DNA of 15,825 nt, taken from the IMG/VR virus record IMGVR_UViG_2778261180_000007; one strand, written 5' to 3'. Positions 698 through 15,825 of this stretch are shown here, one piece after another. The position numbers were made by a program, and so were the translations under genes. The notes under the pieces were generated by a model. It made no database searches. It saw only the letters and a program-made list of their open reading frames with translations, and was not told the DNA's origin. Every line of letters starts with the position of its first letter. The first letter of the stretch is position 1. This stretch comes from a virus. Its lineage: Duplodnaviria; Heunggongvirae; Uroviricota; Caudoviricetes.

Positions 698-1060
698 GGG
701 GCTGATTCTGGATTCGACGGGATTTGCGAAACCCAAGGTGCATGCCGAGGGGCGGTTGGCCTCGTAAAAAGCCGCAAAAAATAGTCGCAAACGACGAAAA
801 CTACGCTTTAGCAGCTTAATAACCTGCTTAGAGCCCTCTCTCCCTAGCCTCCGCTCTTAGGACGGGGATCAAGAGAGGTCAAACCCAAAAGAGATCGCGT
901 GGAAGCCCTGCCTGGGGTTGAAGCGTTAAAACTTAATCAGGCTAGTTTGTTAGTGGCGTGTCCGTCCGCAGCTGGCAAGCGAATGTAAAGACTGACTAAG
1001 CATGTAGTACCGAGGATGTAGGAATTTCGGACGCGGGTTCAACTCCCGCCAGCTCCACCA
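698..1060 (+). ncRNA. ssrA: tmRNA (transfer-messenger RNA, SsrA), 363 nt
   Basis: Starts GGGGCTGATTCTGGATTCGACGGG and ends GGTTCAACTCCCGCCAGCTCCACCA (tRNA-like acceptor/T-arm with CCA). Internal tag reading frame GCA AAC GAC GAA AAC TAC GCT TTA GCA GCT TAA at 787-819 encodes (A)ANDENYALAA. Confidence 0.95.
1038..1060. other. attL core: last 23 nt of ssrA (TTCAACTCCCGCCAGCTCCACCA)
   Basis: A P4-type integrase gene follows ssrA directly, and an imperfect copy of this segment recurs at 12922-12943 at the far end of the P4-like gene set. Confidence 0.4.
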
Positions 1061-1093
1061 CTTGCTCTTCCGGATACGTCCGGAGAAATCCTG

Positions 1094-1128
1094 AAAGCCC
1101 GCATGGCACAAGCTCTGCGGGCTTTTTT
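1094..1128 (+). terminator. intrinsic terminator downstream of ssrA
   Basis: GC-rich hairpin AAAGCCCGCA...TGCGGGCTT followed by TTTTTT (1122-1128). Confidence 0.5.
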
Positions 1129-1172
1129 GTGTCTACCGTTGTCCGAGGATATCCAGCTAAATCCAGTGATTA

Positions 1173-1224
1173 TTGGTATACGTTTAGGTATACGGTAGGA
1201 TGTATACCTAAACGCGTATACCAA
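1173..1224. repeat. inverted pair of a 21-bp motif (TTGGTATACGnTTAGGTATAC) upstream of int; candidate integrase arm-type or operator sites
   Basis: TTGGTATACGTTTAGGTATAC at 1173-1193 and its near-perfect reverse complement GTATACCTAAACGCGTATACCAA at 1202-1224. A third copy, TTGGTATACGATTAGGTATAC, lies at 12848-12868 next to the attR-like site. Confidence 0.5.
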
Positions 1225-1244
1225 TTCATGAAGGAACGGCTAAA

Positions 1245-2444
1245 GTGGCAAGAACGACACGCCCCCTGACCAACACAGAAGTTCTGCGCGCTAAAGCGTT
1301 AGAAAAGGATCTAACGTTGCATGATGGCGATGGTCTTTTTCTGCTCGTTAAAACGAACGGTAAGAAGTTATGGCGTTTCCGTTATCAACGTCCAACAACA
1401 AAGCAGCGAACAATGATGGGGCTAGGTGCATTTCCCGCCCTCTCACTTGCTGACGCCCGGCGGTTAAGAGCGGATTACCTTTCCTTGCTAGCCAACGGAA
1501 TTGACCCGCAAATTCAAGCTGAGATTGTAGAGGAACAGCAACAAATTGCACTGGACAGTATTTTTTCAACAGTCGCCGCTAACTGGTTCCAGCTTAAAAG
1601 CAAAAGCGTTACCCCTGATTACGCGAAAGACATTTGGCGTTCACTAGAAAAAGATGTATTCCCTGCCATCGGTGAGATTCCAGTTCAGCAAATCAAAGCC
1701 CGAATGCTTGTTGAAGCCCTAGAGCCAATCAAAGCACGTGGGGCGCTAGAGACGGTACGTCGTCTGGTGCAGCGCATTAATGAGATAATGATTTATGCCG
1801 TAAACACAGGTCTGATTGATGCCAATCCAGCATCAGGTATTGGGATGGCCTTTGAGAAACCTAAAAAGCAAAACATGCTTACTCTCCGGCCAGAAGAATT
1901 ACCGAAGCTGATGCGTTCTTTAATTATGTCTAATCTATCCGTTCCGACACGTTGTCTTATTGAGTGGCAACTACTGACCCTTGTGCGCCCTTCTGAAGCC
2001 TCCGGTACAAGGTGGGCAGAGATCGATCTCGCAGCAAAGGTCTGGACGATTCCACCCGAACGGATGAAGGCCAAGCGTGAGCACATTGTTCCTCTATCTT
2101 CTCAGGCATTAGAAATTCTGGAAGTAATGAAACCAATCAGTGCTCATCGTGAACATGTTTTTCCCAGTAGAAATGACCCGAAACAGTCAATGAATAGCCA
2201 AACTGCTAATGCAGCACTCAAACGCATTGGTTATGGTGGGAAATTAGTTGCTCATGGGTTACGATCCATCGCAAGTACTGCACTCAATGAAGCCGGATTT
2301 AATCCTGATGTAATTGAAGCAGCTCTAGCACATAGTGATAAAAATGAAGTACGAAGAGCTTATAACCGCTCAACGTACCTTAATAAAAGAATAGAACTTA
2401 TGGCATGGTGGGGAAGGTTTGTTTATAAAACAAACCTTTTATAA
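1245..2444 (+). CDS. int: P4-family tyrosine integrase (site-specific recombinase)
   Basis: 399-aa ORF with a GTG start preceded by AAGGA. N-terminal arm-binding-like region (LHDGDGLFLLVKTNGKKLWRFRYQRP) and C-terminal catalytic signature (AHGLRS ... AHSDKNEVRRAYNRSTY) typical of P4-like integrases. Position directly 3' of a tmRNA gene. Confidence 0.9.
   Translation: MARTTRPLTNTEVLRAKALEKDLTLHDGDGLFLLVKTNGKKLWRFRYQRPTTKQRTMMGLGAFPALSLADARRLRADYLSLLANGIDPQIQAEIVEEQQQIALDSIFSTVAANWFQLKSKSVTPDYAKDIWRSLEKDVFPAIGEIPVQQIKARMLVEALEPIKARGALETVRRLVQRINEIMIYAVNTGLIDANPASGIGMAFEKPKKQNMLTLRPEELPKLMRSLIMSNLSVPTRCLIEWQLLTLVRPSEASGTRWAEIDLAAKVWTIPPERMKAKREHIVPLSSQALEILEVMKPISAHREHVFPSRNDPKQSMNSQTANAALKRIGYGGKLVAHGLRSIASTALNEAGFNPDVIEAALAHSDKNEVRRAYNRSTYLNKRIELMAWWGRFVYKTNLL
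2414..2444 (+). terminator. possible terminator hairpin inside the 3' end of int
   Basis: AAGGTTTG (2414-2421) pairs with CAAACCTT (2431-2438) and is followed by TTTTATAA. The int stop (2442-2444) directly abuts the stop of the convergent ATPase gene (2445-2447). Confidence 0.3.
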
Positions 2445-4142
2445 CTATACTTTAAAGAACTTATTTGTCGAAGATAACTCAAGGATCGAGTTACTCATCA
2501 TCATTTTCATGTCCGCATCTTCTGAAAACTTATCACTTAATATTGACACAATATATTGACCATTTATATTATTTGCTTCAAAAAATATATCTCTAATTTG
2601 ATTCACATCGACATCTTCAATGCTATCATGAATAACAAAAGTAGGTCTCTTTAATTTAATCTTATCCACAAACTTAATATAAGCCAAATCAAATGCAGTT
2701 ATTTCACCTTTCTTCTTGCCGCCATTACTGTTTGGTGTAACGCATGATATATCAAAATTACACTTACCTTTATCAACATCAAAGGAAAGATCAAAAATGT
2801 ATCTTTCCCCATATATTTCCTTTGTAAGATCACCAAAAAACTCATTGAAAATCTCGATGTTTTTTTCCAGACCTTGAACTGCTAACTCTATTTCTAAAAG
2901 TAATTTCTCTCGACTATCTTCAAGAGATTTTATAAGGGCATTTGTATCATTAATACGCGAAAGATTAGACTCTATGCTAGCAAGATTTTCACGTAATTCA
3001 GTAAGCTTATTAAATAATTGATTTATAGACTTTAATGTTTCAGGTTCTTTGATTGTTCTAAATAGGGATGATTCTTGTTCATGAAGATCATTGATTTTTT
3101 TATTTACAGTTTCTATTTCTTCTTTTTTCTTTAACAATTCAGATTCTAAAAAACTGATTTTATTCTTAATAATATCATTATGGAACAATACCATTTCTTC
3201 GTAAGTCCTTTTAAGTTCCCCATTAAAATAAATCCCCGCAGAATTATATATTTCCATTAAATCATTTTCTACAAGTTGTGTGATATTATTCTTCAAGGAC
3301 AAGATCGATTCTTCGATATTTCTTACTCGCATATTTAAGGAGGCATAGCTCAAAGAATAATCACTGATATTCTTCTGTATTTCTGAAAGCTTTTTTAAGC
3401 TTTCATCATGACTATCTTTAAAATCGAAGTTCTTAATATTTCTTTCCGCCTCTGCAATTTCTTTCTTCAGAGGCTTAATCATTTTTGCTAAAACAGTCTC
3501 TCTATTTGGATTCCTGTATGCGGCAAGATATGTCTTTTGTTTTTTTATCTCTTTGTTAAAATCACCTTTTTTCTTTATCAGAGGTAACCCATTGAACCCA
3601 AATAAAAACAAGTATAATAGATCATAGACATCAGGAGTCGTATTCCCATGTAAGAAATTAAGCGTTTTCTGCATTTTATCATTCGTGTTTCTAATAAATT
3701 TATGCGAAACATTCCTCAGTGATGGCTTATCTGTAGTTAACCCAAACACTGCTTGAGCTATAAATTCAGAATATTGTTTCTTATCTACTTCAACATCATT
3801 TAAAAAATATTTTGAATTTTTATCATCAATAGATATTATACGTGAAACAACTGCCTTTTTATTTTCTACCGTATTGAAATCCAATGAAAATTTCAAAACA
3901 TTATTATTAATTAACGATACAATTTCAGGTATATCTTTTCCAAACTCTGCATCATGATAAATATCATGACCTGATGACATAAATAAATAATCTAAAACAC
4001 GCGATAATGTGGATTTACCTACACTATTGCCGCTATCTTTGCCTGATGTTCTTTTATTTACAATTAGATTCAGACCGTCTTTAAACGTCACCTCTCTTAC
4101 AAGAGAGTCATTTTTTAAAATAATAAGTTTATTGAGCCTCAT
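2445..4142 (-). CDS. ABC-type (SMC/RecF-like) ATPase with long central coiled-coil; candidate defence-system ATPase
   Basis: 565-aa ORF. N-terminal strand-plus-P-loop layout (LNLIVNKRTSGKDSGNSVGKSTL, Walker A lysine K43). About 300 aa of heptad-like K/E/L/N-rich sequence. C-terminal signature-like SNGGKKKG followed by Walker-B-like TFVIHDSIEDVD. Start overlaps the upstream gene by 14 nt; GGTGGA lies upstream of the ATG. Confidence 0.75.
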   Translation of the reverse strand: MRLNKLIILKNDSLVREVTFKDGLNLIVNKRTSGKDSGNSVGKSTLSRVLDYLFMSSGHDIYHDAEFGKDIPEIVSLINNNVLKFSLDFNTVENKKAVVSRIISIDDKNSKYFLNDVEVDKKQYSEFIAQAVFGLTTDKPSLRNVSHKFIRNTNDKMQKTLNFLHGNTTPDVYDLLYLFLFGFNGLPLIKKKGDFNKEIKKQKTYLAAYRNPNRETVLAKMIKPLKKEIAEAERNIKNFDFKDSHDESLKKLSEIQKNISDYSLSYASLNMRVRNIEESILSLKNNITQLVENDLMEIYNSAGIYFNGELKRTYEEMVLFHNDIIKNKISFLESELLKKKEEIETVNKKINDLHEQESSLFRTIKEPETLKSINQLFNKLTELRENLASIESNLSRINDTNALIKSLEDSREKLLLEIELAVQGLEKNIEIFNEFFGDLTKEIYGERYIFDLSFDVDKGKCNFDISCVTPNSNGGKKKGEITAFDLAYIKFVDKIKLKRPTFVIHDSIEDVDVNQIRDIFFEANNINGQYIVSILSDKFSEDADMKMMMSNSILELSSTNKFFKV

Positions 4143-4362
4143 ATACTATTCCACCATTTCCATCTAACTCAATTGCGCCGATTATGAAAAGCCAATCTAA
4201 TGAGTAAAGAAAAAGATCAAACGATAACTCGAAGATAGAATTTACTAAATCATACAATCGAGATATTTCAATGACCATTGAATCATTACTTTGAAAGATC
4301 CCAAGCACTACACTTCCAATATATACAGGATTTGCTTTTGGATCCGTATCAATTGTAATCAT
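4129..4362 (-). CDS. hypothetical small protein (77 aa) with hydrophobic C-terminal half; operon member
   Basis: ORF preceded by GGAG with 8-nt spacing. Overlaps both neighbours by 14 nt, indicating coupled translation. Hydrophobic segment FDLFLYSLDWLFIIGAIEL. No family recognised. Confidence 0.5.
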   Translation of the reverse strand: MITIDTDPKANPVYIGSVVLGIFQSNDSMVIEISRLYDLVNSIFELSFDLFLYSLDWLFIIGAIELDGNGGIVYEAQ

Positions 4363-4897
4363 TTGGATTCTCCAGCACTATACATTCGATAATAGCATAG
4401 CTAACAATCATACGAATGCCATAATCAATATCTTCCTGTAAAAACTCTGAATCTAAATTAGAACACGAACTAACTGTTTCTTGAGCAGCTCTAATAACAT
4501 CATCTATAATATTATCCGAGTTTTTCCTTATGAGTTCAATGTTAAATGGTTTCTCATAAAGACCATATAATCCCAATGCAGTATTATAATAACCTCTAAA
4601 CTGTCTTTTCAATTTGACACTACCATTTAAAATTATAGCATCAAGTGTTTTTATGGATTCATCAACTAGCAGAGCATCTTCTTTATAAAGTTCAGCTACC
4701 CATCTGTTTCTTTTAAGATCATTGAATTCTATTTTAACATCAATATTTGATGCTATTCTGTTTAAGTTTTGCTCGCTACCAACTGAATTAGAAATAATTT
4801 CAATTAACTTACCAATAACACTGGCTCTTAACATTCTTGGCTGGTTGTTTATATGCACAGGACCAGTATTATTATTGAAATTAACACCAGAACCCAT
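4349..4897 (-). CDS. hypothetical protein (182 aa); operon member
   Basis: ORF preceded by GGGGG. Starts 3 nt after the stop of the upstream small gene. N-terminus carries an NNNTGPVHINN motif that repeats the C-terminus of the upstream protein. No catalytic motif recognised. Confidence 0.65.
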   Translation of the reverse strand: MGSGVNFNNNTGPVHINNQPRMLRASVIGKLIEIISNSVGSEQNLNRIASNIDVKIEFNDLKRNRWVAELYKEDALLVDESIKTLDAIILNGSVKLKRQFRGYYNTALGLYGLYEKPFNIELIRKNSDNIIDDVIRAAQETVSSCSNLDSEFLQEDIDYGIRMIVSYAIIECIVLENPNDYN

Positions 4898-4899
4898 AA

Positions 4900-5172
4900 T
4901 TACCCCCGATTATCAATATTCACAGGACCATTATTATCTTGAAAATATTGAGAACGCGCTCCTTGATTAATGAAGTTTCTATTAGTTGTAATTTTTACAA
5001 TCTGGGAATTAAGATCATTTATTGTAATGTTAAGTTGTTTTATCTCATTATCTTTCTTGGTTACTTGCATAGTCTGATATATTGCTATACATCCAGAGAT
5101 CACCCCAACAATATATCCAAAGGCACTTACATATTCGTTAGCAAGTAGTGATGCAATCATTTGGAGCTCCAT
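4900..5172 (-). CDS. small membrane-anchored protein (90 aa; 86 aa from the alternative ATG at 5160); first gene of the operon
   Basis: Predicted N-terminal transmembrane helix (IASLLANEYVSAFGYIVGVISGCIAIY) followed by a charged helical stretch. The second in-frame ATG at 5160 has a better-placed GGAG. C-terminus NNGPVNIDNRG. Confidence 0.55.
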   Translation of the reverse strand: MELQMIASLLANEYVSAFGYIVGVISGCIAIYQTMQVTKKDNEIKQLNITINDLNSQIVKITTNRNFINQGARSQYFQDNNGPVNIDNRG

Positions 5173-5429
5173 TTCAAGCTGAAAGATTTAAAGTCACAAC
5201 AATCTCATCCTATTAGGGTAGCTAGGATAGCAACTCATGAAGAGTAAATAAATAGGTATTAATCATTATCGTTTACATGATCTAATTCAACATAGATCCA
5301 CTCATGGCCTCTATACTTTCTCATAAACACAGTGTTTAGCTATGTGGGCTTAAGAGGTCTAAATTGATGTACTTACTTTATCAATTGATATAACCCCAAA
5401 TTATAATCGTTTCATATCATTGACGCGCA

Positions 5430-5448
5430 GTGCTTTCCCCGCCTCGCC
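5430..5448 (-). other. cos site: 19-nt cohesive-end sequence GGCGAGGCGGGGAAAGCAC (minus-strand reading)
   Basis: Plus-strand GTGCTTTCCCCGCCTCGCC is the exact reverse complement of the cohesive-end sequence I recall for P2 and P4. It lies between psu and the cargo operon, where cos sits in an integrated P4. Confidence 0.75.
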
Positions 5449-5548
5449 CGCCCGCTTTGCGGGGCGGTTTTAATGCAGTTGCACTGACACGCTCAGACCG
5501 CGCCGGGAATGGCGCGGTCTGCAGAAAATGAGGCAGGGAAACGCATGC

Positions 5549-5582
5549 AAAGCCATGCACCTTATCGATGCATGGCTTTTTT
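5549..5582 (+). terminator. hairpin plus T-tract between cos and the psu 3' end
   Basis: AAAGCCATGCA (5549-5559), loop CCTTATCGA, TGCATGGCTTT (5569-5579), then a T run. May stop read-through into or out of the late operon; orientation of function uncertain. Confidence 0.35.
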
Positions 5583-5612
5583 CAGTAAAAACGGGCGGAT
5601 TTTCGGGGAATT

Positions 5613-6185
5613 TTACACAGACTGACGTGATGCCAGTTGCGCACTTTTACGCGAAAAAATCATGTTCTGCGCAGGGGTGAATTTTTCACGGCTGTCATCC
5701 ACCGAAGCCGCGTCAGGTCTGAATCCAATGGCCGTTAAAATGTCGCTATCCTGTGCGGAATAATTAATTTTTTCACCCTTCGCAAGCCAGGACAGGAGGG
5801 CTTCACGCAGGGCATCTGTGGCACGCTGTATGGCACAGTTTCGGGCAATGGCCGTCAGCTCACTGTAGCCCATCAGCTCCGGTGCCAGTGCCGCCGCCAG
5901 TGCTGTGCCGTGCTGCTGCATAAAATCATTCAGCCGGTCGCGGATGCTGATGTGCTGAACGGCTTCATGCGAACGAATATAACGACCGGCGGCCTGATTC
6001 ACCTGCCATTTTCTGACTTCGATAATATTGCGTAATTCGTCCAGGCGACTGACGTTTCTGCCTTCTCCTGACAGAAGCCGCAGATATTCCTGTTCGGCCG
6101 CAGCCAGCTCATTTTTGCGTTGCAGCCATGCTGCTTTGTTATTCTGACAGGTGTCAAAGGCCTGCTGTAAGGCTGTGCTTTCCAT
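5613..6185 (-). CDS. psu: Psu (polarity suppression / capsid decoration protein), P4-like
   Basis: 190-aa ORF, the size of P4 Psu, last gene of the sid-delta-psu array next to cos. Sequence MESTALQQAFDTCQNN... recognised as Psu-like. Confidence 0.85.
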   Translation of the reverse strand: MESTALQQAFDTCQNNKAAWLQRKNELAAAEQEYLRLLSGEGRNVSRLDELRNIIEVRKWQVNQAAGRYIRSHEAVQHISIRDRLNDFMQQHGTALAAALAPELMGYSELTAIARNCAIQRATDALREALLSWLAKGEKINYSAQDSDILTAIGFRPDAASVDDSREKFTPAQNMIFSRKSAQLASRQSV

Positions 6186-6258
6186 CGTTATCTCTTTCTC
6201 ATCATGCTGAAGAATAAAAATACGGTGTGCGGCGACGGCCGGTGTTAACCGGCAGCCC

Positions 6259-6759
6259 TCATTCCAGACGCAGCGAATATGATTGTGTTTTTAACCGTAC
6301 TGGCGGCAGTTCCTGTTTTTCATGCAGGCTTTCTGCAAGCTCGTCCGGCGTGACCGGGCGGACAATGAAGCGGTTGATGGTCTGAAGCGTTTTAAACACC
6401 AGACCACAGCCCGGATCCGTGCACACATAAAAACGCTCGGTGACTTCCTGAGACAGACGCCGCGATGTTCTTGACAGTGCAAGGCCTTTACATCTCCGAC
6501 AACAATATCCGGTAACAAGCATTCTTTTCGGGCGTTTCATACTGCCGGAGGCTGACGTCAGTGAATCGCGGTATCTCTGTTTGCCTGAAATGTATTCCAT
6601 TCCTGAATCTTTACTGTCAGAGAAAAAGCTTTCACTCGCTTCAAATGTCGCAGAGCAATAAATATTCCGGCACTGTGCAATCATTATCTTGGTGCCATCG
6701 TCCATGAAATGTGCGCGACGGGTGTGAGCAACATGTCCACACGACGGGCAGTAAATCAT
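6259..6759 (-). CDS. delta: Delta, Ogr/Delta-family zinc-finger late-gene activator (tandem Ogr-like repeats)
   Basis: 166-aa ORF with two Ogr-like units, each carrying CPxCGH...C-x-N-x-x-C(S)ATF-type Cys motifs (MIYCPSCGHVAHTRR...QCRNIYCSATF and ...CRRCKG...CTDPGCGLVF). ATGA overlap with the sid stop. Confidence 0.85.
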   Translation of the reverse strand: MIYCPSCGHVAHTRRAHFMDDGTKIMIAQCRNIYCSATFEASESFFSDSKDSGMEYISGKQRYRDSLTSASGSMKRPKRMLVTGYCCRRCKGLALSRTSRRLSQEVTERFYVCTDPGCGLVFKTLQTINRFIVRPVTPDELAESLHEKQELPPVRLKTQSYSLRLE

Positions 6760-7490
6760 GACAGCAGTCCTCTGGCCTTAAGCTCTGCTCCCTGCTGGTC
6801 TATTTTGTCCTGCCACACCTTGCGCTGTGCCGGTGTGCCTGCCACCTCATAATCCATGTGCGGGAGTGTTGCCGCTGACAGTCCGGTCAGCCGGAGAACC
6901 GGCTCACCGGTGAGGCTGATTTGCATCTGTTTTATTTTCTGTTCCAGCGATGATTTCACCTGCTGCATGACAGCCTTTTCCGGTGCGACGTAGCCCTGAT
7001 GGCCGGTGGTGTTGGCGAGCGGATTTTCCTGTACCAGGATGCTCAGATGCATTGCCCGGACAAGCACCTCACAGGTTTCATTCAGGGCGTGTTCCAGCTC
7101 ATGCTCTGCATACAGACTCAGAAGGTGATGATGTGCCTTCCGGTAGGCGGTGGCCGTGCTGTCACACGCCCCTTTCAGGCGTTCACGTTCAAAATTCAGC
7201 ACCACGGCCAGATTGTCATATTCCTGTACCAGCTCCCGGCGTGCCACGCGCTCAATGTGGCGCTGTTTCAGCTCGTCGCTCAGGACACCACCGGCTGCAC
7301 GAAAGGCCGTGCGCCAGTCGTCAGCGTCGTTTCCGTCGGCCTGCGCCAGCGCATTTTTTTCCTGCTCTGCCCGTTCAATGGCCGTGACGGTCTCATCCAT
7401 CAGGCGGGCGTTCTCAAGATGGGCGGCTCTGGCCTTTTCCAGTTGTGCCAGCGCGGGTTGCAGATATTCAGGGATGGTGTTGTCAGACAT
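6756..7490 (-). CDS. sid: Sid (capsid size determination, external scaffold), P4-like
   Basis: 244 aa from the ATG at 7490, which is preceded by AGGAG (MSDNTIPEYLQPALAQ...). The ORF track's earlier ATG at 7556 lacks a Shine-Dalgarno and would overlap the promoter region. Confidence 0.8.
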   Translation of the reverse strand: MSDNTIPEYLQPALAQLEKARAAHLENARLMDETVTAIERAEQEKNALAQADGNDADDWRTAFRAAGGVLSDELKQRHIERVARRELVQEYDNLAVVLNFERERLKGACDSTATAYRKAHHHLLSLYAEHELEHALNETCEVLVRAMHLSILVQENPLANTTGHQGYVAPEKAVMQQVKSSLEQKIKQMQISLTGEPVLRLTGLSAATLPHMDYEVAGTPAQRKVWQDKIDQQGAELKARGLLS

Positions 7491-7562
7491 TTTCCGGCTC
7501 CTCGTCACTTCAGGTTGAGAAAATTGTGACGTACACCGGACAACAACACGACGCATTGCAGA

Positions 7563-7580
7563 TGTGCCAGCCCTGACACA
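7563..7580 (-). promoter_or_regulatory. candidate Delta/Ogr activator site (TGT-N12-ACA) of the sid late promoter
   Basis: TGTGCCAGCCCTGACACA. Its centre is about 82 bp upstream of the sid ATG, compatible with a dyad centred near -55 and a ~27-nt leader. Confidence 0.35.
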
Positions 7581-7659
7581 GGAGACTCATCCTCAGACCG
7601 GCAAGCCAGGAAAAGGTCGCAGGAAAAACCGGCTTACTGTTTGTTTTTTTATATTTTAC

Positions 7660-7763
7660 TGTTCACCTCTGTTCACCATAAGAAAAAAGATAAGTAATAC
7701 AGTAAGTTAAAGGGTGAACAATCGCAGTAATGACTGTTCACCGTCTGTTCACCACTGTTCACC
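7660..7763. repeat. iteron cluster: six copies of the P4 type-I octamer TGTTCACC; candidate alpha-binding origin
   Basis: TGTTCACC at 7660-7667, 7670-7677, 7735-7742, 7746-7753 and 7756-7763; inverted copy GGTGAACA at 7713-7720. Flanked by a T-rich tract (7641-7657). Lies between the divergent sid and vis promoters. Confidence 0.7.
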
Positions 7764-7922
7764 CGTTGATGGGCTTTTTGTGCTGTTTATTACTGTTTGT
7801 TTTTATTAATTCGCCGGGAATGAATAAGAAAAAACGATTTGTATTTCACTATAAAAATTACGAATTGCTTTAAGTGGCTTTAAATGACTTTAAGTGGAGA
7901 TGAACAAAAAACACACAAGCAT

Positions 7923-7940
7923 TGTAAGGCTGCCGGAACA
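7923..7940 (+). promoter_or_regulatory. candidate Delta-dependent late-left promoter activator site (TGT-N12-ACA) upstream of vis
   Basis: TGTAAGGCTGCCGGAACA. Centre is about 111 bp upstream of the vis ATG, and about 395 bp upstream of the putative early promoter. Confidence 0.3.
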
Positions 7941-8042
7941 AATCCCCCCTGTTGCGTCTGCTGAAAATATTCACAAAATAAAACGCTACCCGAAGCCGGA
8001 CGGACTTATCCGGTGCTGTATGGACATTAACGAGGTAGCCCG

Positions 8043-8309
8043 ATGCAAGCTGTTTTTTCTTCCCCGTCTCCTGCCCCTGTGACGCCACTGATGCCGCTGC
8101 CGGACATCACACAGGAGCGTTTTTTACGTCTGCCGGAAGTGATGCACCTGTGCGGCCTGTCACGCTCGACCATCTATGAACTCATCCGTAAGGGGGAATT
8201 TCCGCCGCAGGTGAGTCTTGGCGGTAAAAATGTGGCCTGGCTGCACTCTGAAGTCACCGCATGGATGGCCGGCCGCATTGCCGGACGCAAACGGGGGTAT
8301 GACGCATGA
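8043..8309 (+). CDS. vis: Vis/AlpA-family DNA-binding regulator (excision and late-transcription control)
   Basis: 88-aa ORF, the size of P4 orf88/Vis. AlpA-type helix-turn-helix core [48 protein letters not shown] lies 7 nt upstream of the ATG. Confidence 0.8.
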
Positions 8310-8896
8310 TGATGCCCGCTCTGCAAAAACTCCCTTTTTCTGGCTTGCCTTTTTCCGGCATTTGCGGATATAGTTTTTCCGTTGCCGCAAAATCGGCAGC
8401 CGGGCGTGAGAACCCGTGTAACTCGAAGGCGACATATGACGCGCCATGCGTCTTTTTTTGTGTCGCAATCAACGCCACAGAGCGCCAGATTATGGTGTGG
8501 CGTGTGGTTTGCCGTGCAGGTATGATCCTGTTCGCAATCGCATGTTATGCCACTGAGTCAATGGTAGCTCAGGCGGGGCAGCCTCCGGGCTGGCCGGTAT
8601 TCTTCGAGGCCGGTATTCTCACCCCCGTCTGGGCTATCGCCATCGAGCGTGAGAACTCCGGCGATAGCAGTTATTTGCTACTCGAAGGAGGCTGCCTTAT
8701 GGCTACAACCCTTACCCCCTCACACCCTGAATTTGTCTTTGTGTTTGCGGCTGTCCGTCGCGCAGACCGTCATCCCCGTATCTGTATGCTTCGCACCGTC
8801 GCCGGTGATGAACGCAGTGCCCGCCGTTCCCTTGTCCGTGACTATGTGCTCTCCCTTGCTGCCCGTCTGCCGGTGGTGGAGGTGTCCCGTGCGTAA
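8306..8896 (+). CDS. eta: eta-like long ORF (194-196 aa, three consecutive ATGs) enclosing kil and spanning the immunity region
   Basis: Open frame from an ATGATGATG start that overlaps the vis stop (ATGA). Matches my recollection of P4 eta: about 197 codons, three candidate start codons, kil nested in the same frame at the 3' end. Coding status itself is uncertain. Confidence 0.4.
8345..8374 (+). promoter_or_regulatory. candidate early promoter (PLE-like)
   Basis: TTGCCT (8345-8350), 18-bp spacer, TATAGT (8369-8374); alternative -10 GATATA with 16-bp spacer. Lies just upstream of seqA. Confidence 0.3.
8406..8687 (+). promoter_or_regulatory. P4-type RNA immunity region: seqA (8406-8428), seqB within a candidate CI RNA (8602-8622), seqC (8649-8687)
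   Basis: seqA GTGAGAA...CTCGAAG and seqC GTGAGAA...CTCGAAG are each complementary to seqB CTTCGAG...TTCTCAC (reverse complement GTGAGAAtaccggcCTCGAAG). seqC runs into the GGAGG Shine-Dalgarno of kil. Confidence 0.45.
8699..8896 (+). CDS. kil: Kil-like small protein (65 aa)
   Basis: ATG at 8699 preceded by GGAGG that overlaps seqC. 65 codons, the size I recall for P4 Kil. Shares frame and stop with eta. Confidence 0.5.
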
Positions 8897-9176
8897 TAAA
8901 AAAGCCCCTCAGACCGTCTCAGCACGTCATGACGCCCGTGAACACCTCAGCATTGAGGCTTACCATAAGCTCAACCGCGCCAGCGCCGTATCCCAGTTTG
9001 TTGGGGGTGATTTGATTCACCGTGAACTCTCCGGCCTGCATCAGCTCTACATTCCGCATATTTTCAGCTACCTGAATGAAGATATTGATTTTGTGCTGAA
9101 TGAGCTGAAAGCCAAAGGCCTGTGCCGCGATTTTCTCGCCCAGCAGAAAGACCGGGGAGACAGGACGCATGTTTGA
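8889..9176 (+). CDS. Eps-like protein (95 aa), candidate helper-derepression factor
   Basis: GTG start at 8889 preceded by GGAGG and overlapping the kil stop. Stop overlaps the start of the orf151-like gene. Assignment is by position and size relative to P4 epsilon. The ORF track's longer form (from 8649) lies in the immunity region. Confidence 0.5.
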
Positions 9177-9624
9177 TTTTCCCCAGCCCGGTGAGATTTA
9201 CCGTTCTGCCGGTTTTCCCGATGTGGCCGTAGTCGGCATTCTGGAAGACGGTATTCCGTGGGAAATGCCGTACCGCTGCCCGGACATTGTCTGGAACCCG
9301 TACCGCCGTAAATTCAGTATTCTTGTGCGTATCCTCGCCGACGGGCGCACCACAGACATCCCGCTGGGGCGTTTTCTGCGGGAATTTACCTGTGACCGTC
9401 CTGACCTGTTTAAACGCAGCCCCGTAAACCGGCATGCGGTACTGAAAGAAATGGCCGGAGACCCGGAATTACAGAAATGGCGGGAGAAATATCTGGATAT
9501 TTACCCGCAGGAGCCTGTTCCGGTCAGCCGGGCGGCACCGGTGGCGCGGGAATGGCGGGAAATTCCCCGCACGGAGCCTGACCCGGAAATCACCCCGGAT
9601 AACAGTTACCGCAATTATCTGTAA
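9169..9624 (+). CDS. P4 orf151-like hypothetical protein (151 aa)
   Basis: Size and position (between eps and alpha) match P4 orf151. Start overlaps the upstream stop. Confidence 0.7.
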   Translation: MFDFPQPGEIYRSAGFPDVAVVGILEDGIPWEMPYRCPDIVWNPYRRKFSILVRILADGRTTDIPLGRFLREFTCDRPDLFKRSPVNRHAVLKEMAGDPELQKWREKYLDIYPQEPVPVSRAAPVAREWREIPRTEPDPEITPDNSYRNYL

Positions 9625-9759
9625 TTAAAAAACGACACCCGAAAAATTAAATGTGCGTATTCGCGCAGGGATACGCACGTCTTCAGGAGACGCAGATATG
9701 CCTTATCAGTTAATGCAACCGGCACGGAATGCAGTCATCTGTCACAGGGAGGAAAGCAA

Positions 9760-10080
9760 ATGAAAACACCCTTACCGCCCGTCTTACGCGCTGCCCTTTA
9801 CCGTCGCGCTGTCGCCTGTGCCTGGCTGACCGTGTGCGAACGTCAGCACCGCTACCCGCATCTCACCCTTGAGTCACTGGAGGCGGCCATCGCCGCTGAG
9901 CTGGAAGGCTTTTATCTGCGCCAGCACGGTGAGGAAAAAGGGCGTCAGATAGCCTGTGCCCTGCTGGAAGATTTAATGGAATCCGGCCCCCTGAAGGCCG
10001 CGCCGTCGCTGTCCTTTCTCGGGCTGGTTGTGATGGATGAACTCTGTGCCCGTCACATAAAAGCGCCGGTACTGCACTGA
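9760..10080 (+). CDS. P4 orf106-like hypothetical protein (106 aa)
   Basis: GGGAGG lies 7 nt upstream of the ATG. Sits directly upstream of alpha. A 21-codon upstream ORF overlaps its start. Confidence 0.65.
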
Positions 10081-10094
10081 AGGAGAACAACACC

Positions 10095-12428
10095 ATGAAA
10101 ATGAACGTAACCGCCACCGTCAGCCATGCACTCGGCCACTGGCCGCGTATTCTCCCGGCGCTGGGGATTCAGGTGCTGAAAAACCGTCATCAGCCCTGTC
10201 CGGTCTGTGGCGGGAGTGACCGCTTCCGTTTTGATGACAGGGAGGGGCGCGGCACCTGGTACTGCAATCAGTGTGGTGCCGGTGACGGCCTGAAACTGGT
10301 TGAAAAGGTGTTTGGTGTTTCCCCGTCCGACGCGGCCGCAAAGGTGGCTGCCGTGACCGGCAGCCTGCCCCCGGCTGACCCGGCAGTGACGGCCGCCGCC
10401 GGTGCTGAAACAGACGCTGCCCGGAAGAACGCCGCCGCACTGGCACAAACCCTGATGGCAAAAACCCGTCCCGGAACCGGTAACGCCTACCTGACCCGCA
10501 AGGGCTTTCCCGGCCGGGAATGCCGGATGCTGACCGGCACACACAGAGCCGGTGGCGTGAGCTGGCGCGCCGGTGACCTTGTGGTGCCACTGTATGACGA
10601 CAGCGGCGAACTGGTTAACCTTCAGTTAATCAGTGCTGACGGCCGTAAGCGCACCCTGAAAGGCGGACAGGTCAGGGGCACCTGTCACATCCTTGAAGGA
10701 CAGAATCAGGCCGGAAAACGTCTGTGGATAGCGGAGGGATACGCGACCGCACTTACCGTGCATCACCTGACCGGTGAAACGGTGATGGTGGCGCTTTCTT
10801 CCGTGAATCTCCTTTCTCTGGCCAGCCTTGCCCGGCAGAAGCATCCGGCCTGTCAGATTGTCCTTGCTGCTGACCGTGACCTCAGCGGTGACGGCCAGAA
10901 AAAAGCCGCCGCAGCCGCAGATGCGTGTGAAGGTGTTGTTGCCCTGCCGCCGGTCTTCGGTGACTGGAATGATGCCTTCACGCAGTACGGCGGGGAAGCC
11001 ACCCGTAAGGCCATTTATGATGCCATCCGGCCACCGGCTGAAAGCCCGTTCGACACCATGAGCGAAGCGGAGTTTTCCGCCATGAGTACCAGCGAAAAGG
11101 CCATGCGTATCTATGAGCATTACGGCGAGGCGCTCGCGGTTGATGCCAACGGCCAGCTTCTGTCCCGTTATGAAAATGGTGTCTGGAAGGTGCTGCCACC
11201 ACAGGACTTTGCCCGGGATGTGGCCGGGCTGTTTCAGCGGCTGCGCGCGCCGTTCTCCTCCGGGAAGGTGGCCTCCGTGGTGGACACCCTGAAGCTGATT
11301 ATTCCGCAGCAGGAAGCCCCCTCCCGCCGCCTGATTGGCTTTCGTAACGGCGTGCTCGACACGCAGAACGGCACGTTCCACCCGCACAGTCCGTCACACT
11401 GGATGCGCACCCTGTGCGATGTGGATTTCACCCCACCGGTGGAAGGGGAAACGCTGGAAACCCACGCCCCCGCGTTCTGGCGCTGGCTTGACCGTGCCGC
11501 CGGTGGCCGTGCGGAAAAACGCGACGTGATTCTGGCCGCACTGTTTATGGTGCTGGCAAACCGCTATGACTGGCAGCTCTTTCTGGAGGTGACCGGTCCC
11601 GGCGGAAGCGGCAAAAGTATCATGGCCGAAATAGCCACCCTGCTGGCCGGGGAGGATAACGCCACGTCGGCCACCATTGAGACGCTGGAATCCCCGCGTG
11701 AACGTGCCGCGTTAACTGGCTTCTCACTGATACGCCTGCCGGACCAGGAAAAATGGAGCGGCGACGGAGCCGGACTCAAGGCCATCACCGGCGGCGATGC
11801 AGTGTCCGTTGACCCGAAATACCGGGATGCGTACTCCACGCACATCCCGGCGGTGATTCTGGCCGTGAACAATAACCCGATGCGCTTCACCGACCGCAGC
11901 GGCGGCGTGTCACGCCGGCGGGTGATTATTCACTTCCCGGAACAGATAGCCCCGCAGGAGCGCGACCCGCAACTTAAGGACAAAATCACCCGCGAGCTGG
12001 CGGTCATCGTGCGTCACCTGATGCAGAAGTTCAGCGACCCGATGCTCGCCCGGTCACTGCTTCAGTCCCAGCAGAACTCAGACGAGGCACTGAACATCAA
12101 ACGGGATGCCGACCCGACGTTTGATTTTATCGGCTATCTGGAAACCCTGCCGCAGACCAGCGGCATGTATATGGGGAACGCCAGTATCATCCCGCGTAAC
12201 TACCGTAAATACCTCTATCACGCCTATCTGGCCTACATGGAGGCAAACGGCTACCGGAATGTACTCAGTCTGAAAATGTTCGGGCTGGGGCTGCCGGTGA
12301 TGCTGAAGGAATACGGGCTGAATTACGAGAAGCGCCATACCAAACAGGGGATACAGACCAACCTGACGCTGAAAGAGGAAAGCTACGGCGACTGGCTGCC
12401 AAAATGTGACGACCCTGCAACAACCTGA
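10095..12428 (+). CDS. alpha: Alpha: P4-type primase-helicase replication protein
   Basis: 777 aa, the size of P4 alpha. AGGAG Shine-Dalgarno. N-terminal zinc motif CPVCGGSDRFRFDD...CNQCG. Toprim-like EGYATAL and AADRD. Helicase Walker A VTGPGGSGKS. Iteron arrays lie on both sides. Confidence 0.9.
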   Translation: MKMNVTATVSHALGHWPRILPALGIQVLKNRHQPCPVCGGSDRFRFDDREGRGTWYCNQCGAGDGLKLVEKVFGVSPSDAAAKVAAVTGSLPPADPAVTAAAGAETDAARKNAAALAQTLMAKTRPGTGNAYLTRKGFPGRECRMLTGTHRAGGVSWRAGDLVVPLYDDSGELVNLQLISADGRKRTLKGGQVRGTCHILEGQNQAGKRLWIAEGYATALTVHHLTGETVMVALSSVNLLSLASLARQKHPACQIVLAADRDLSGDGQKKAAAAADACEGVVALPPVFGDWNDAFTQYGGEATRKAIYDAIRPPAESPFDTMSEAEFSAMSTSEKAMRIYEHYGEALAVDANGQLLSRYENGVWKVLPPQDFARDVAGLFQRLRAPFSSGKVASVVDTLKLIIPQQEAPSRRLIGFRNGVLDTQNGTFHPHSPSHWMRTLCDVDFTPPVEGETLETHAPAFWRWLDRAAGGRAEKRDVILAALFMVLANRYDWQLFLEVTGPGGSGKSIMAEIATLLAGEDNATSATIETLESPRERAALTGFSLIRLPDQEKWSGDGAGLKAITGGDAVSVDPKYRDAYSTHIPAVILAVNNNPMRFTDRSGGVSRRRVIIHFPEQIAPQERDPQLKDKITRELAVIVRHLMQKFSDPMLARSLLQSQQNSDEALNIKRDADPTFDFIGYLETLPQTSGMYMGNASIIPRNYRKYLYHAYLAYMEANGYRNVLSLKMFGLGLPVMLKEYGLNYEKRHTKQGIQTNLTLKEESYGDWLPKCDDPATT

Positions 12429-12440
12429 CCCTCATGACTC

Positions 12441-12800
12441 ATCTGACCGGCATCTGCCGGTCTTTTTTCATCCCTGAATCCCCCGAAGGTGAACAATCCA
12501 CTGTTCACCCTTCACCGTATATTCACCCGTTATCACACTGAAATTAAAAGAGAAAAATGAAAGGTGAACAGTGTGAACAATCAAATCAAAAAAAACTTTT
12601 TTCTCCCTGTGTGATTTCAGTACGGGGGATTAATCACCGGTATGAGTCACACCGGCAGAATGCCGGAGGTGAAGAATCGAATGTTCACCCTTCACCCATT
12701 ATTCACCACCTATCAAACTGAAATAAAAGGAGAAAAAAGAAAGATGAACAGTGTGAACAGTTCTTCCGAAAAAAAATTTTTTTCCTGTACGATATAGCAT
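12441..12800. repeat. two tandem ~180-bp imperfect direct repeats with TGTTCACC/GGTGAACA iterons and A8/T6-7 tracts; cis-replication-region-like
   Basis: Unit 1: GGTGAACA 12488-12495, TGTTCACC 12502-12509, degenerate copies 12510-12528, GGTGAACA 12563-12570, GTGAACA 12573-12579, A8cT6 12588-12602. Unit 2 repeats this 180 bp later (TGTTCACC 12682-12689, A8T7 12769-12783). Each unit begins with a CCGGCA...TGCCGG hairpin. Confidence 0.65.
12445..12468 (+). terminator. intrinsic terminator of the alpha (left) operon
   Basis: GACCGGCA, loop TC, TGCCGGTC, then TTTTTT, 17 nt after the alpha stop. Confidence 0.55.
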
Positions 12801-12847
12801 CAATCCAAGTAAAAATGCGCTTTCATTTCACATTAACTTACAGCCAT

Positions 12848-12868
12848 TGGTATACGATTAGGTATACA
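12848..12868. repeat. third copy of the 21-bp TTGGTATACGnTTAGGTATAC motif (candidate arm-type site)
   Basis: TTGGTATACGATTAGGTATAC, 54 bp before the attR-like sequence. Confidence 0.4.
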
Positions 12869-12921
12869 CACAAAAACTGAATTAAACAAAATCATTAAAA
12901 ATCAAAGCAATACAATATTTA

Positions 12922-12943
12922 TTCAAACTCCGCCAGCCCACCA
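12922..12943. other. attR-like degenerate copy of the ssrA 3' end (TTCAAACTCCGCCAGCCCACCA)
   Basis: Aligns to the attL core TTCAACTCCCGCCAGCTCCACCA with three single-base indels. Lies immediately beyond the last P4-like feature and before the chromosomal autotransporter gene. Confidence 0.35.
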
Positions 12944-13070
12944 ATCATGATTGGACGGTATAAGGACAACACCAATAAAAACAGGAAGTTAGCAGTCTCA
13001 GCAGGACACCGACCAGACGGTGAAGAGACATAAAAGGATACGCAAAGGAGCCGCGGCTCCTGGTGACATG

Positions 13071-13094
13071 AAAGCCCACAGATGTGGGCTTTTT
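13071..13094. terminator. hairpin with T-tract just 3' of the autotransporter gene (orientation ambiguous)
   Basis: AAAGCCCACA, loop GAT, GTGGGCTTT, then TTT; A-rich on the other side, so possibly bidirectional. Confidence 0.35.
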
Positions 13095-13103
13095 CGTTGA
13101 TGG

Positions 13104-13430
13104 TCAGAACGACCAGTTCACACCAGCTACCCCGTTCCACGGGGATTCCACACCGGCACCATGGCTATACCCCACCCCAAGATGCCCGCTTAACGTACTG
13201 CTGAATGAGGCTTTAATACCTGCCTGGTATATTCCACGTCTGCCCGACAAATCATTGACAAAATTACCGTCACTATTCACTTTCACCCGATTATCATCGA
13301 CAAATTCTTTGCGCACAGCCGCCTTCAGGCAGGGTTCAATTTCCATACCGTTCCCCAGACGCATGTTGTAACTCAGCGTTGCACCCAGTTCACGATATAA
13401 ACTGCGGGTATCGACTGATTTCGATTCCAT
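13104..13430 (-). CDS. autotransporter C-terminal beta-barrel segment (108 aa), in a different frame from the upstream passenger ORF
   Basis: Ends ...GVAGVNWSF with a terminal aromatic residue, typical of outer-membrane beta-barrel C-termini. Separated from the passenger ORF by a stop and a frame change at 13431-13461. Confidence 0.5.
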   Translation of the reverse strand: MESKSVDTRSLYRELGATLSYNMRLGNGMEIEPCLKAAVRKEFVDDNRVKVNSDGNFVNDLSGRRGIYQAGIKASFSSTLSGHLGVGYSHGAGVESPWNGVAGVNWSF

Positions 13431-13458
13431 GCCATTGGATAAATGATATTCAGGGTTA

Positions 13459-15825
13459 TCAGCGGTGAACCCCCGTTAACGATGCATACGGCGTCAGGTT
13501 CCAGTTACCATCGGTAAATCGCATCCCGGTTTCAATGTGACCGCCCAGCCCGTTGCTGCGATAACTGCCGTTGGCGGCTCCACCGCTGCCAACCGTGGAG
13601 TCGCGAGCTTCGGTACCTGCTAATACCAATAAATTACCGCCATTTTCCAGCAACATATTGGTCGCTAAATTGCCGGAAATGGAAAAAGTGCCGTACTGGT
13701 GAGTACCGCTGATTTCAATACCGTTAGCCGTGCTCGTCTGGAGAGCGGCACCGCTGTTCTGGACGATATCTGTCGCTTTGCCATTATCGTTAACTGTCAG
13801 CGTACCGCCTTCATTGATCTTTGTTTTTATTGCCTCTCCGTTAGCTGAAACTGTTTGTATTCCGCCGTCGTTAATCGTTGTCTCATTCGCCACCCCCTCG
13901 ACGATTTGTTCGCCGCCGGTGAGCGTCGTGCCTGTCGCAGTGGCTTTTGTTTTGACGATCTCCCGTCCGCCCGTATTGACCTGTGTTTTGTCAGAAGAGG
14001 TGTCTGACTCCATGGTTAACACGCCGCCATTTGCCAGCAGGATATTGTTCGCCGCACCCTGCTCGATGCTGAACGCGACGCCATCCGCGCGTGTTCCTGT
14101 GACCCGCGTCGCCCTGGTGGTTGCAACCAAAGCGTCCTGGCTACTCTGCTGTATCCCCGTTGCGCTGCCTTTCTCCCGCACATCGAGTGTGCCGCCGTCA
14201 TTAAGCACCGAGTTTTCAGCCAGACCGCCCTCATTAACTACCTGTGAACACCCATTAATAATGGAACCTTCCGCTGTCCCGTTTGCCATAATTTGTTGTA
14301 GGCCAGAGACGATATCGGTATTGATTGCCTTACCATAATTCTGAACGGTTTGCGTGCCACCATTGATGTGTGTTTTCTCTGTTGACCCACCATCAACAAT
14401 TTGTTCACCACTTTCGATATTTGCCTCAGTGGCTAATCCATATACCGTTTGCTTGCCACCTTTGATATTTGCTTTATCAGAAGTGGCACTGGCATATATT
14501 GTTTGGGTGCCAGCACTATTGAGTACAGTGCCAACATCTTTTCCATAAACATCCATTTTGCCGTTGGCATTAATAATCGTATCAACTGCCCGGGAACCAG
14601 TGACGACTGTTAATGAGCCAGCGTTTTCCAGCACTACATTTTTAGCTTCTGAATTCCTGATGTAGAAAGCATCACCATAACTGTTGGTTCCTTCGATAAG
14701 GGTTCCGGAAGTTGTGGAAGCAATTAATGCGCCGCCGGATTGTTGCTCAACATGCTTAGCCTCACCACCGTCCTGAACCTCCAGAACGCCACCATTATTA
14801 AGTCTGGTGGTATCTGTTTTAGCCTCCTTCTGGGCAATCAGCTTACCGCCAGCATCAACGGTAGTATTTTTCGCCGAGGTTTTAGCCACTACCGTCAGTT
14901 CGCCGGTATTTTCCAGCACAACATAATTAGCCTCCCCTCCGGTAATAGTGAAGTGAGAGAGCTTGTTGTATCCTTCAATATCAGTCCCTGCGCCCGTGTT
15001 GGCAACTAAAGCACTGCCCGTCTCCTGGTTAACCCCATGTGCAATACCACCGGTATAGACAATCAGCGAGCCTCCGGCGCTAATATTGCTGCCAGTTGCC
15101 GTACCATCTTTCTCAACAACCTGCCGGCTCCCGGAGGATATAATTGTCGTGTCAGCTTTCCCGCCGCTCTTGATATTTTGCGTTCCGCCGTTGATATTGG
15201 TACCCGTGGCAATACCATGATTATTAATATTCTGTGTACCACCATTGATTATGGTATTGGTCGCGTTTCCGGTAACATCCATTACCCCGCCGTTATCTAT
15301 TCGGGTCGCATCAGCTTTAGCATTCGTTAAAACTGACATTGTTCCTTTATCTTTAATAATCGTCTTGTTTGCCGAACCATATGCGTTTATGTCTAAATGA
15401 CCACCGTTTTCCAGCAACACATTGTCTGCCACGTGATTGTGGATGGAGAATGCACCTTCACTATTCGTACCGCTCACCGTCGTACCGTTAGTGTTTGTTT
15501 TTAAAATTGCACCATCGTGCTGGGTAACATTTGTTGCCGTACCACCACTAACATCAAGCACGCCACCGGAATAAACTTCAATAACATCCGAGGAGCTGGT
15601 GTAATCAACAATTTGCGTACCACCAGAATAGATCTGAGTATTTTTTGCCGTTGACTTATTATTCAGAGACTGAGTTCCACCTTCAATCGTCGTGTCCAGC
15701 GCATGGCTTTCATATACTCTTTGCTCACCGCCATTTTTAATGGTGGTTGTTCCTACTGTGCTCTGTTCAACAGTAACCGGCTCATTTAAACCGTCTGGTC
15801 TGTTTCCTCCGGCTCTACAAAAATA
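13459..15825 (-). CDS. AIDA-I/Ag43-type autotransporter adhesin, passenger region (5'-partial; continues beyond the window end)
   Basis: Reading frame is open from the window edge (15825) down to the stop at 13459-13461. Dozens of G/T/N-rich ~19-aa beta-helix repeats (e.g. INGGTQNI, TIINGGTQ, VLENAGSLTVV). The ORF track's GTG at 15561 is not the true start. Confidence 0.8.
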   Translation of the reverse strand, partial: YFCRAGGNRPDGLNEPVTVEQSTVGTTTIKNGGEQRVYESHALDTTIEGGTQSLNNKSTAKNTQIYSGGTQIVDYTSSSDVIEVYSGGVLDVSGGTATNVTQHDGAILKTNTNGTTVSGTNSEGAFSIHNHVADNVLLENGGHLDINAYGSANKTIIKDKGTMSVLTNAKADATRIDNGGVMDVTGNATNTIINGGTQNINNHGIATGTNINGGTQNIKSGGKADTTIISSGSRQVVEKDGTATGSNISAGGSLIVYTGGIAHGVNQETGSALVANTGAGTDIEGYNKLSHFTITGGEANYVVLENTGELTVVAKTSAKNTTVDAGGKLIAQKEAKTDTTRLNNGGVLEVQDGGEAKHVEQQSGGALIASTTSGTLIEGTNSYGDAFYIRNSEAKNVVLENAGSLTVVTGSRAVDTIINANGKMDVYGKDVGTVLNSAGTQTIYASATSDKANIKGGKQTVYGLATEANIESGEQIVDGGSTEKTHINGGTQTVQNYGKAINTDIVSGLQQIMANGTAEGSIINGCSQVVNEGGLAENSVLNDGGTLDVREKGSATGIQQSSQDALVATTRATRVTGTRADGVAFSIEQGAANNILLANGGVLTMESDTSSDKTQVNTGGREIVKTKATATGTTLTGGEQIVEGVANETTINDGGIQTVSANGEAIKTKINEGGTLTVNDNGKATDIVQNSGAALQTSTANGIEISGTHQYGTFSISGNLATNMLLENGGNLLVLAGTEARDSTVGSGGAANGSYRSNGLGGHIETGMRFTDGNWNLTPYASLTGVHR

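Follow-up and report, generated by a model that had tools for sequence, protein, structure and literature searches.

The window, that is, the whole stretch of 15,825 nucleotides that was analysed, is part of an E. coli chromosome. It holds smpB (1-483), the tmRNA gene ssrA (698-1060) and a tyrosine integrase gene (1245-2444), and a prophage spans approximately 1038-12943. With a length of about 11.9 kb, this element is the size of P4. Its int, psu, delta, sid, ori, immunity RNA, cnr and alpha are all intact. The 7.3 kb from 5449 to 12782 are 97.7% identical to P4 (4291-11624) and comprise psu, delta, sid, ori, the immunity region, cnr, alpha and the counterpart of the P4 crr, the cis replication region. 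Three of these components bear directly on the present analysis. The alpha ORF encodes a primase-helicase-origin-binding protein, residues 671-770 of which are 100% identical to PDB entry 1KA8, deposited as “putative P4-specific DNA primase”. In the literature, this fragment of P4 alpha is cited as the origin-binding winged-helix domain. The ori matches the rep_origin of P4, with its six “ori type 1” and three “ori type 2” repeats, and cnr aligns with “ORF 106” of P4.

Rfam places three P4 immunity RNAs in the element: the c4-a1b1 target (8368-8420), isrK (8381-8458) and the C4 antisense RNA (8557-8644). Together (8368-8644) they fall partly within an ORF that PGAP names “Icd-like”. Between int and the P4 core, the minus strand of 2445-5172 is a variable block of four genes. 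One codes for a DUF2326 protein (565 aa), another for an “ABC-three component system middle component 6” (77 aa), and the products of the remaining two are hypothetical. This four-gene block lies at the place of a known defence hotspot of P4 (PMC9122126). On the 3′ side of the prophage resides ypjA (13092-15561, minus strand), a fragmented gene for an adhesin-like autotransporter. The near-identical strain 14EC029 has ypjA annotated as a pseudogene, together with a separate beta-barrel ORF.

The left attachment site, attL (1038-1060), is the 3′ end of ssrA. A search of the two element ends for exact att duplicates of 12 nt or longer found none; gapped local alignment found a copy of attL that is degenerate, with 1-nt indels at two places. 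Genomes without the element have the sequence at 12922-13100 of the window contiguous with ssrA, where it overlaps the annotated 3′ end of this gene. As these genomes join this sequence to the ssrA 3′ end, and the degenerate copy lies at that very place, 12922-12943 is identified as attR. With attR degenerate, precise excision of the element may have been lost. A 22-nt repeat, ATTGGTATACG(A/T)TTAGGTATAC, is found near both prophage ends, at 1172-1193 beside the integrase gene and at 12846-12867. It is predicted that these 22-nt repeats are probably arm-type integrase or excisionase sites. Additional copies of GGTATAC/GTATACC are located at 1176-1225.

The homology to P4 breaks off exactly at the last base of the second crr repeat (12782), which is 140 bp before the right end of the prophage. 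The 139 bp that follow (12783-12921) are element-specific and unrelated to P4. As the integration and att module beyond 12782 (12783-12943, with int at 1245-2444) is unrelated to that of P4, the end of the crr coincides with a boundary of module exchange.

Repeats, iterons and hairpins downstream of alpha

The flagged bases, 12441-12800 (360 nt), sit directly 3′ of the 777-codon alpha ORF. The original prediction described this region as two tandem repeats of ~180 bp downstream of alpha, each opening with a CCGGCA/TGCCGG hairpin, carrying three to five octamers or degenerate copies of them, and closing with an A8-T6/7 tract. The repeats are real and do lie downstream of alpha, but their size and tandem arrangement were wrong. 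A repeat search returns two direct copies of 120 nt each, which are 81% identical and start 180 nt apart (Table 1). Beyond these 120-nt cores, identity at a lag of 180 is 30%, i.e., at the random level. Thus, the structure is one of 120 + 60 + 120 bp, in which 180 is the period and not the length of a unit. The “2 x 180 bp tandem” reading was dropped on this ground and because Tandem Repeats Finder reports no 180-bp tandem array in the flagged region.

The order downstream of the alpha stop codon (12428) is the terminator, followed by the crr from 12483, with ori some 4.7 kb upstream. The 3′ two-thirds of each crr repeat have an A+T content of ~70%. The A/T tracts are where they were predicted to be: an A8-C-T6 tract at 12588-12602 closes repeat 1 and an A8-T7 tract at 12769-12783 closes repeat 2.

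Table 1. Positions of the crr, its repeats and iterons, and of the associated genes and sites in the window.
Feature	Position	Strand	Remarks
ori	7660-7897		six exact type-1 iterons (7660-7763); three 10-bp type-2 repeats (7867-7897)
cnr (ORF106)	9760-10080	+	intact; Pfam DUF5375 (2.9e-63)
alpha	10095-12428	+	intact; 777 aa; trans-acting partner of crr; Pfam Zn_Ribbon_Prim, Toprim, D5_N, Pox_D5
alpha rho-independent terminator	12445-12468	+	stem GACCGGC/GCCGGTC, loop ATCT, then T6; outside the crr repeats
crr, whole	12483-12782		two 120-bp direct repeats and 60-bp spacer, after P4 annotation; 11 substitutions and 0 indels relative to P4
crr 120-bp direct repeat 1	12483-12602		five iterons, A8-C-T6 tract; one base (12558) differs from P4
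Repeat 1 iteron	12488-12495	-	exact octamer
Repeat 1 iteron	12502-12509	+	exact octamer
Repeat 1 iteron	12520-12527	+	TATTCACC, one mismatch
Repeat 1 iteron	12563-12570	-	exact octamer
Repeat 1 iteron	12572-12579	-	TGTGAACA, one mismatch
crr inter-repeat spacer	12603-12662		60 bp; contains most of the second hairpin
crr 120-bp direct repeat 2	12663-12782		five iterons, A8-T7 tract; P4 homology stops at 12782
Repeat 2 iteron	12668-12675	-	GGTGAAGA, one mismatch
Repeat 2 iteron	12682-12689	+	exact octamer
Repeat 2 iteron	12700-12707	+	TATTCACC, one mismatch
Repeat 2 iteron	12743-12750	-	GATGAACA; P4 counterpart is exact GGTGAACA
Repeat 2 iteron	12752-12759	-	TGTGAACA, one mismatch
attR	12922-12943	+	TTCAAACTCCGCCAGCCCACCA; displaced degenerate copy of the ssrA 3′ end, from local alignment with 1038-1060

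The exact octamer, TGTTCACC/GGTGAACA, occurs 11 times in the whole window, where 0.43 copies are expected, and 0 of 200 shuffled sequences reach this number. Four exact copies reside in the crr, three of them in repeat 1 and one in repeat 2, and six in the ori. When one mismatch is allowed, each 120-bp repeat contains five octamers, giving 10 in 300 bp. The chance level at this stringency is 0.18 per 300 bp in shuffled sequences (maximum 2) and 0.36 in the rest of the window. The five octamers follow the same orientation pattern in both repeats (- + + - -), and all ten map one-to-one onto the positions annotated in P4 as “ori type 1 repeat”, five per repeat. A small cluster of near-iteron octamers is also present at ~14000-14500 inside ypjA; it looks coincidental, arising from coding repeats.

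The first of the two hairpins, GACCGGCATCTGCCGGTC at 12445-12462, begins 17 nt past the alpha stop and is followed by T6. Its fold is terminator-like (-14.1 kcal/mol, z -5.0), and it aligns with the feature annotated in P4 as “talpha put. rho-independent terminator” (X51522 4604-4628). Both observations bear out its proposed role as the terminator of alpha. The second hairpin, CCGGCAGAATGCCGG at 12652-12666, is of similar energy (-14.5 kcal/mol, z -3.1), with no T-run and with a 3′ arm that enters repeat 2. It lies 205 nt from the first and not 180, so the two hairpins do not occupy equivalent or homologous positions of the repeat. In the two-unit loci of other genera, whose spacers of 51-65 nt were compared, neither the second hairpin nor the spacer sequence is conserved. 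Thus, both hairpins exist, but a hairpin that opens each unit does not: the second is lineage-specific and, being out of register, devoid of a T-run and missing from the spacers of other genera, it was rejected as a conserved feature of the crr.

Searches for other functions in the crr support neither a coding, nor an RNA, nor a promoter reading. The ORFs that overlap the crr are all of 54 aa or fewer, and PGAP annotates none of them in strain 14EC029. Rfam, at gathering thresholds, finds no structured RNA in 12400-13100, and a promoter search of 12300-13200 found none.

Match to the cis replication region of P4

The sequence at 12400-12850 of the window was compared by blastn with 50,697 phage records. 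Only three records match, all of them phage P4, with 93% identity over 12400-12782 (X51522.1 4291-4664). The matching stretch spans the P4 features “crr”, “crr 120bp direct repeat” (twice), “ori type 1 repeat” (ten times) and the alpha terminator. The record X05623.1 is likewise annotated, with a “direct repeat 1 cis replication region (crr)”. The original prediction saw here a resemblance to the P4 cis replication region as two direct repeats with type-I iterons, and named in advance the lack of a match to P4 as grounds for abandoning it. The blastn match, the common anatomy and the ten iteron positions all uphold this resemblance.

Over the 300 bp of the crr, the window and P4 differ by 11 substitutions without indels (96% identity), and one substitution falls within an iteron. 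This is a G to A change at 12744 relative to P4, by which an exact GGTGAACA iteron of repeat 2 is weakened to GATGAACA. The substitution at 12652 extends the stem of the second hairpin. On the strength of this homology, and with no observation to contradict it, the stretch is almost certainly the crr of a satellite prophage of the P4 type that has inserted at the 3′ end of E. coli ssrA. Together, the crr, ori, cnr and alpha probably mark the ssrA-linked island as a satellite of the P4 type that is predicted to be replication-competent. The discovery value is small, as the crr is already known. Descriptions of it in P4 go back to the 1980s, the GenBank records of P4 list it as a feature, and the present copy is near-identical to that of P4.

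The crr unit in other genomes

Homologues of the crr are present in 1157 of 5426 complete E. coli genomes (about a fifth), where they are always chromosomal. They are almost never annotated, PGAP giving “none” beneath nearly all matches. As PGAP leaves this stretch of E. coli genomes unannotated, its identification is useful for annotation.

Using alpha as a probe, 80 loci were collected from one-genome-per-species contigs across the Enterobacterales, of which 77 have enough downstream sequence. These were searched by nhmmer with an HMM built from the four units of the window and P4. A crr unit is located 3′ of alpha in 53 of the 77 loci, mostly 45-60 nt past the alpha stop; 18 loci carry two units, 35 a single one, and the other 24 no recognizable unit. 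With the exception of one Edwardsiella locus, two units occur only where the 150 C-terminal residues of alpha are at least 82% identical to those of the window. A single unit is found in more distant satellites and in some elements of E. coli whose alpha is intact, e.g., EcPF15. Where the C-terminus of alpha is at most 65% identical (Pectobacterium, Serratia, Yersinia, Rahnella), there is mostly no recognizable unit. A de novo 7-mer search for alternative iterons common to the region downstream of alpha and the ori zone yielded hints only, e.g., CTTCACC in a Pantoea locus.

The variant GGTGAAGA is the leading iteron of the second unit in all two-unit loci that were examined, a pattern that suggests a single old duplication. 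The exceptional locus, from Edwardsiella hoshinae (L057), has its units ~220 nt apart rather than ~60, within ~58-500 nt past the alpha stop, and its second unit is preceded by a terminator-like GCCGGTC-T7 hairpin of its own. This looks like an independent duplication that took in the 3′ end of alpha. Four of the collected loci (L008, L009, L010 and L044) are on short MAG contigs labelled Clostridiales, Ferruginibacter, “bacterium” and Ruminococcus, with alpha and crr 98-100% identical to those of P4-like elements of E. coli. These are almost certainly the result of binning contamination with E. coli.

Among 64 unique units, the iteron columns have a mean information content of 1.58 bits and the A/T-tract columns 1.68, against 1.04 for the remaining columns (Mann-Whitney p = 2e-5 and 8e-4, respectively), in a profile that is somewhat biased towards the consensus of P4 and the window, to whose HMM the units were aligned. 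This pattern indicates that the iterons and the A/T tract are under selection. The survey is a modest comparative addition to what is known of the crr: most loci with a crr carry it as one unit, a duplicated unit is, with one exception, a trait of the clade closest to P4, and the iterons and A/T tract are constrained.

Proposed role in replication and comparison with known systems

Recent papers refer to the crr as the “cis required region for replication” and describe it as essential for P4 DNA replication. The P4 GenBank annotation also has it as required in cis for replication. In the present element, the crr would serve as a non-coding array of sites at which alpha, the initiator that the element itself encodes, is predicted to bind. 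Once the element is excised and circular, the C-terminal winged-helix domain of alpha would bind the octamers at both ori and crr. In P4, it is this C-terminal domain that binds the type-1 iterons of the two loci, and binding to the present crr can be expected from the identical protein domain and the near-identical sites. The alpha-loaded ori and crr would then be brought together in a looped nucleoprotein complex. This complex, required in cis, would license the helicase and primase of alpha for bidirectional theta replication at ori, which is the mode by which P4 replicates. For the present element, the cis requirement, alpha binding, looping between ori and crr and the sufficiency of one repeat are inferred from the literature on P4. 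The P4 crr functions at variable distance and in either orientation, and a single repeat is enough.

The A/T tracts had been proposed as either unwinding or bending elements. An A-tract and T-tract at the 3′ end of the repeat would most likely confer curvature or flexibility on the nucleoprotein complex, and bending is plausible, the tract being strongly conserved. The alternative, in which the A8-T6/7 tracts make the crr a DNA-unwinding element or a second origin, could draw on the A+T-richness of the repeats and on the place of the A7-N-T6 tract among the most conserved columns. However, an unwinding site is unlikely here because the P4 rep_origin is annotated at another locus, which maps by homology to ~7660-7900 in the window, and that locus, ~4.7 kb away, has type-1 and type-2 repeats of its own. 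The tract also consists of two homopolymer runs spanning 15 nt rather than of AT-rich repeats of the 13-mer unwinding type, and junctions of the A(n)T(n) kind are classically associated with DNA curvature. Taken together, a function in unwinding or as a second origin is very improbable.

Another possibility concerns the direction of the effect. The crr could be mainly a negative element of copy-number control or incompatibility, which titrates alpha or “handcuffs” the ori, with Cnr strengthening the binding. Its iterons lie outside the origin, are common to ori, and adjoin an intact cnr, a gene that controls copy number in the plasmid state, working through alpha (PMC8628076). Against this, the GenBank annotation and current literature give the crr a positive role, with which a negative one conflicts if taken as the sole role, and a pure titration site would need no conserved position, iteron arrangement or A/T tract. 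Cnr reportedly stimulates the binding of alpha to ori and crr and, by enhancing this binding, inhibits initiation. Deletion of the crr in P4 is said to abolish replication rather than to raise copy number. A mainly negative function is doubtful; as an additional role, compatible with the positive one, it is plausible. It could also be argued that the prophage is decaying and that its crr is a relic no longer in use. In favour of this are the chromosomal integration of the element, the one iteron that is weaker than in P4, and the several crr homologues of E. coli that lie in elements in clear decay, where alpha is truncated or pseudogenes occur. Nonetheless, all P4 core genes are intact, the element is P4-sized, and only 11 substitutions separate the 300-bp crr from that of P4, of which one is in an iteron. 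The relic reading is, on balance, improbable.

The preferred reading, that of a cis-acting partner of ori, can be extended to the parts of the unit that are not iterons. The 120-bp unit contains additional conserved blocks outside the iterons: CTTCACC (12510-12516), TATCAC (12531-12536) and TGAAAT (12539-12544). As a speculative proposal, for which the chances are rather low, these blocks and the tract might form an architectural module, i.e., a bend or host-factor site, that is essential for synapsis between ori and crr. The duplication into two units would then represent clade-specific tuning of copy number, and the 24 of 77 loci without a unit would use a different or relocated cis element.

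Compared with known systems, the crr of P4 (X51522.1 4291-4590; X05623.1 2733-3032) has the same place right after the alpha terminator, the same 120 + 60 + 120 bp layout, the ten type-1 iterons in the same positions and orientations, the A/T tracts and an identical origin-binding domain in alpha. The copy in the window differs from it by the eleven point changes, including those at 12744 and 12652 that weaken an iteron and lengthen the stem of the second hairpin. Beyond the crr the two elements diverge, as in P4 the crr is followed by attP and its own int, whereas the element of the window has another integrase and att module and resides at ssrA. The single-unit crr of more distant satellites (Kluyvera, Raoultella, Pantoea, Mangrovibacter) and of E. 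coli EcPF15 shares the unit of ~115 nt, the iteron arrangement and the A7-N-T6 tract, and differs in having one unit where the window has two. Outside the satellites, P1 incA, F incC and the gamma, alpha and beta loci of R6K, with looping by pi, likewise hold groups of repeats that bind the initiator at a distance from the origin and interact with the initiator bound there. Most of these arrays inhibit replication, through handcuffing, or serve as alternative origins, whereas the crr of P4 is annotated as required in cis for initiation. Their initiators are of the Rep or pi type, while that of P4-type elements is a primase-helicase fusion.
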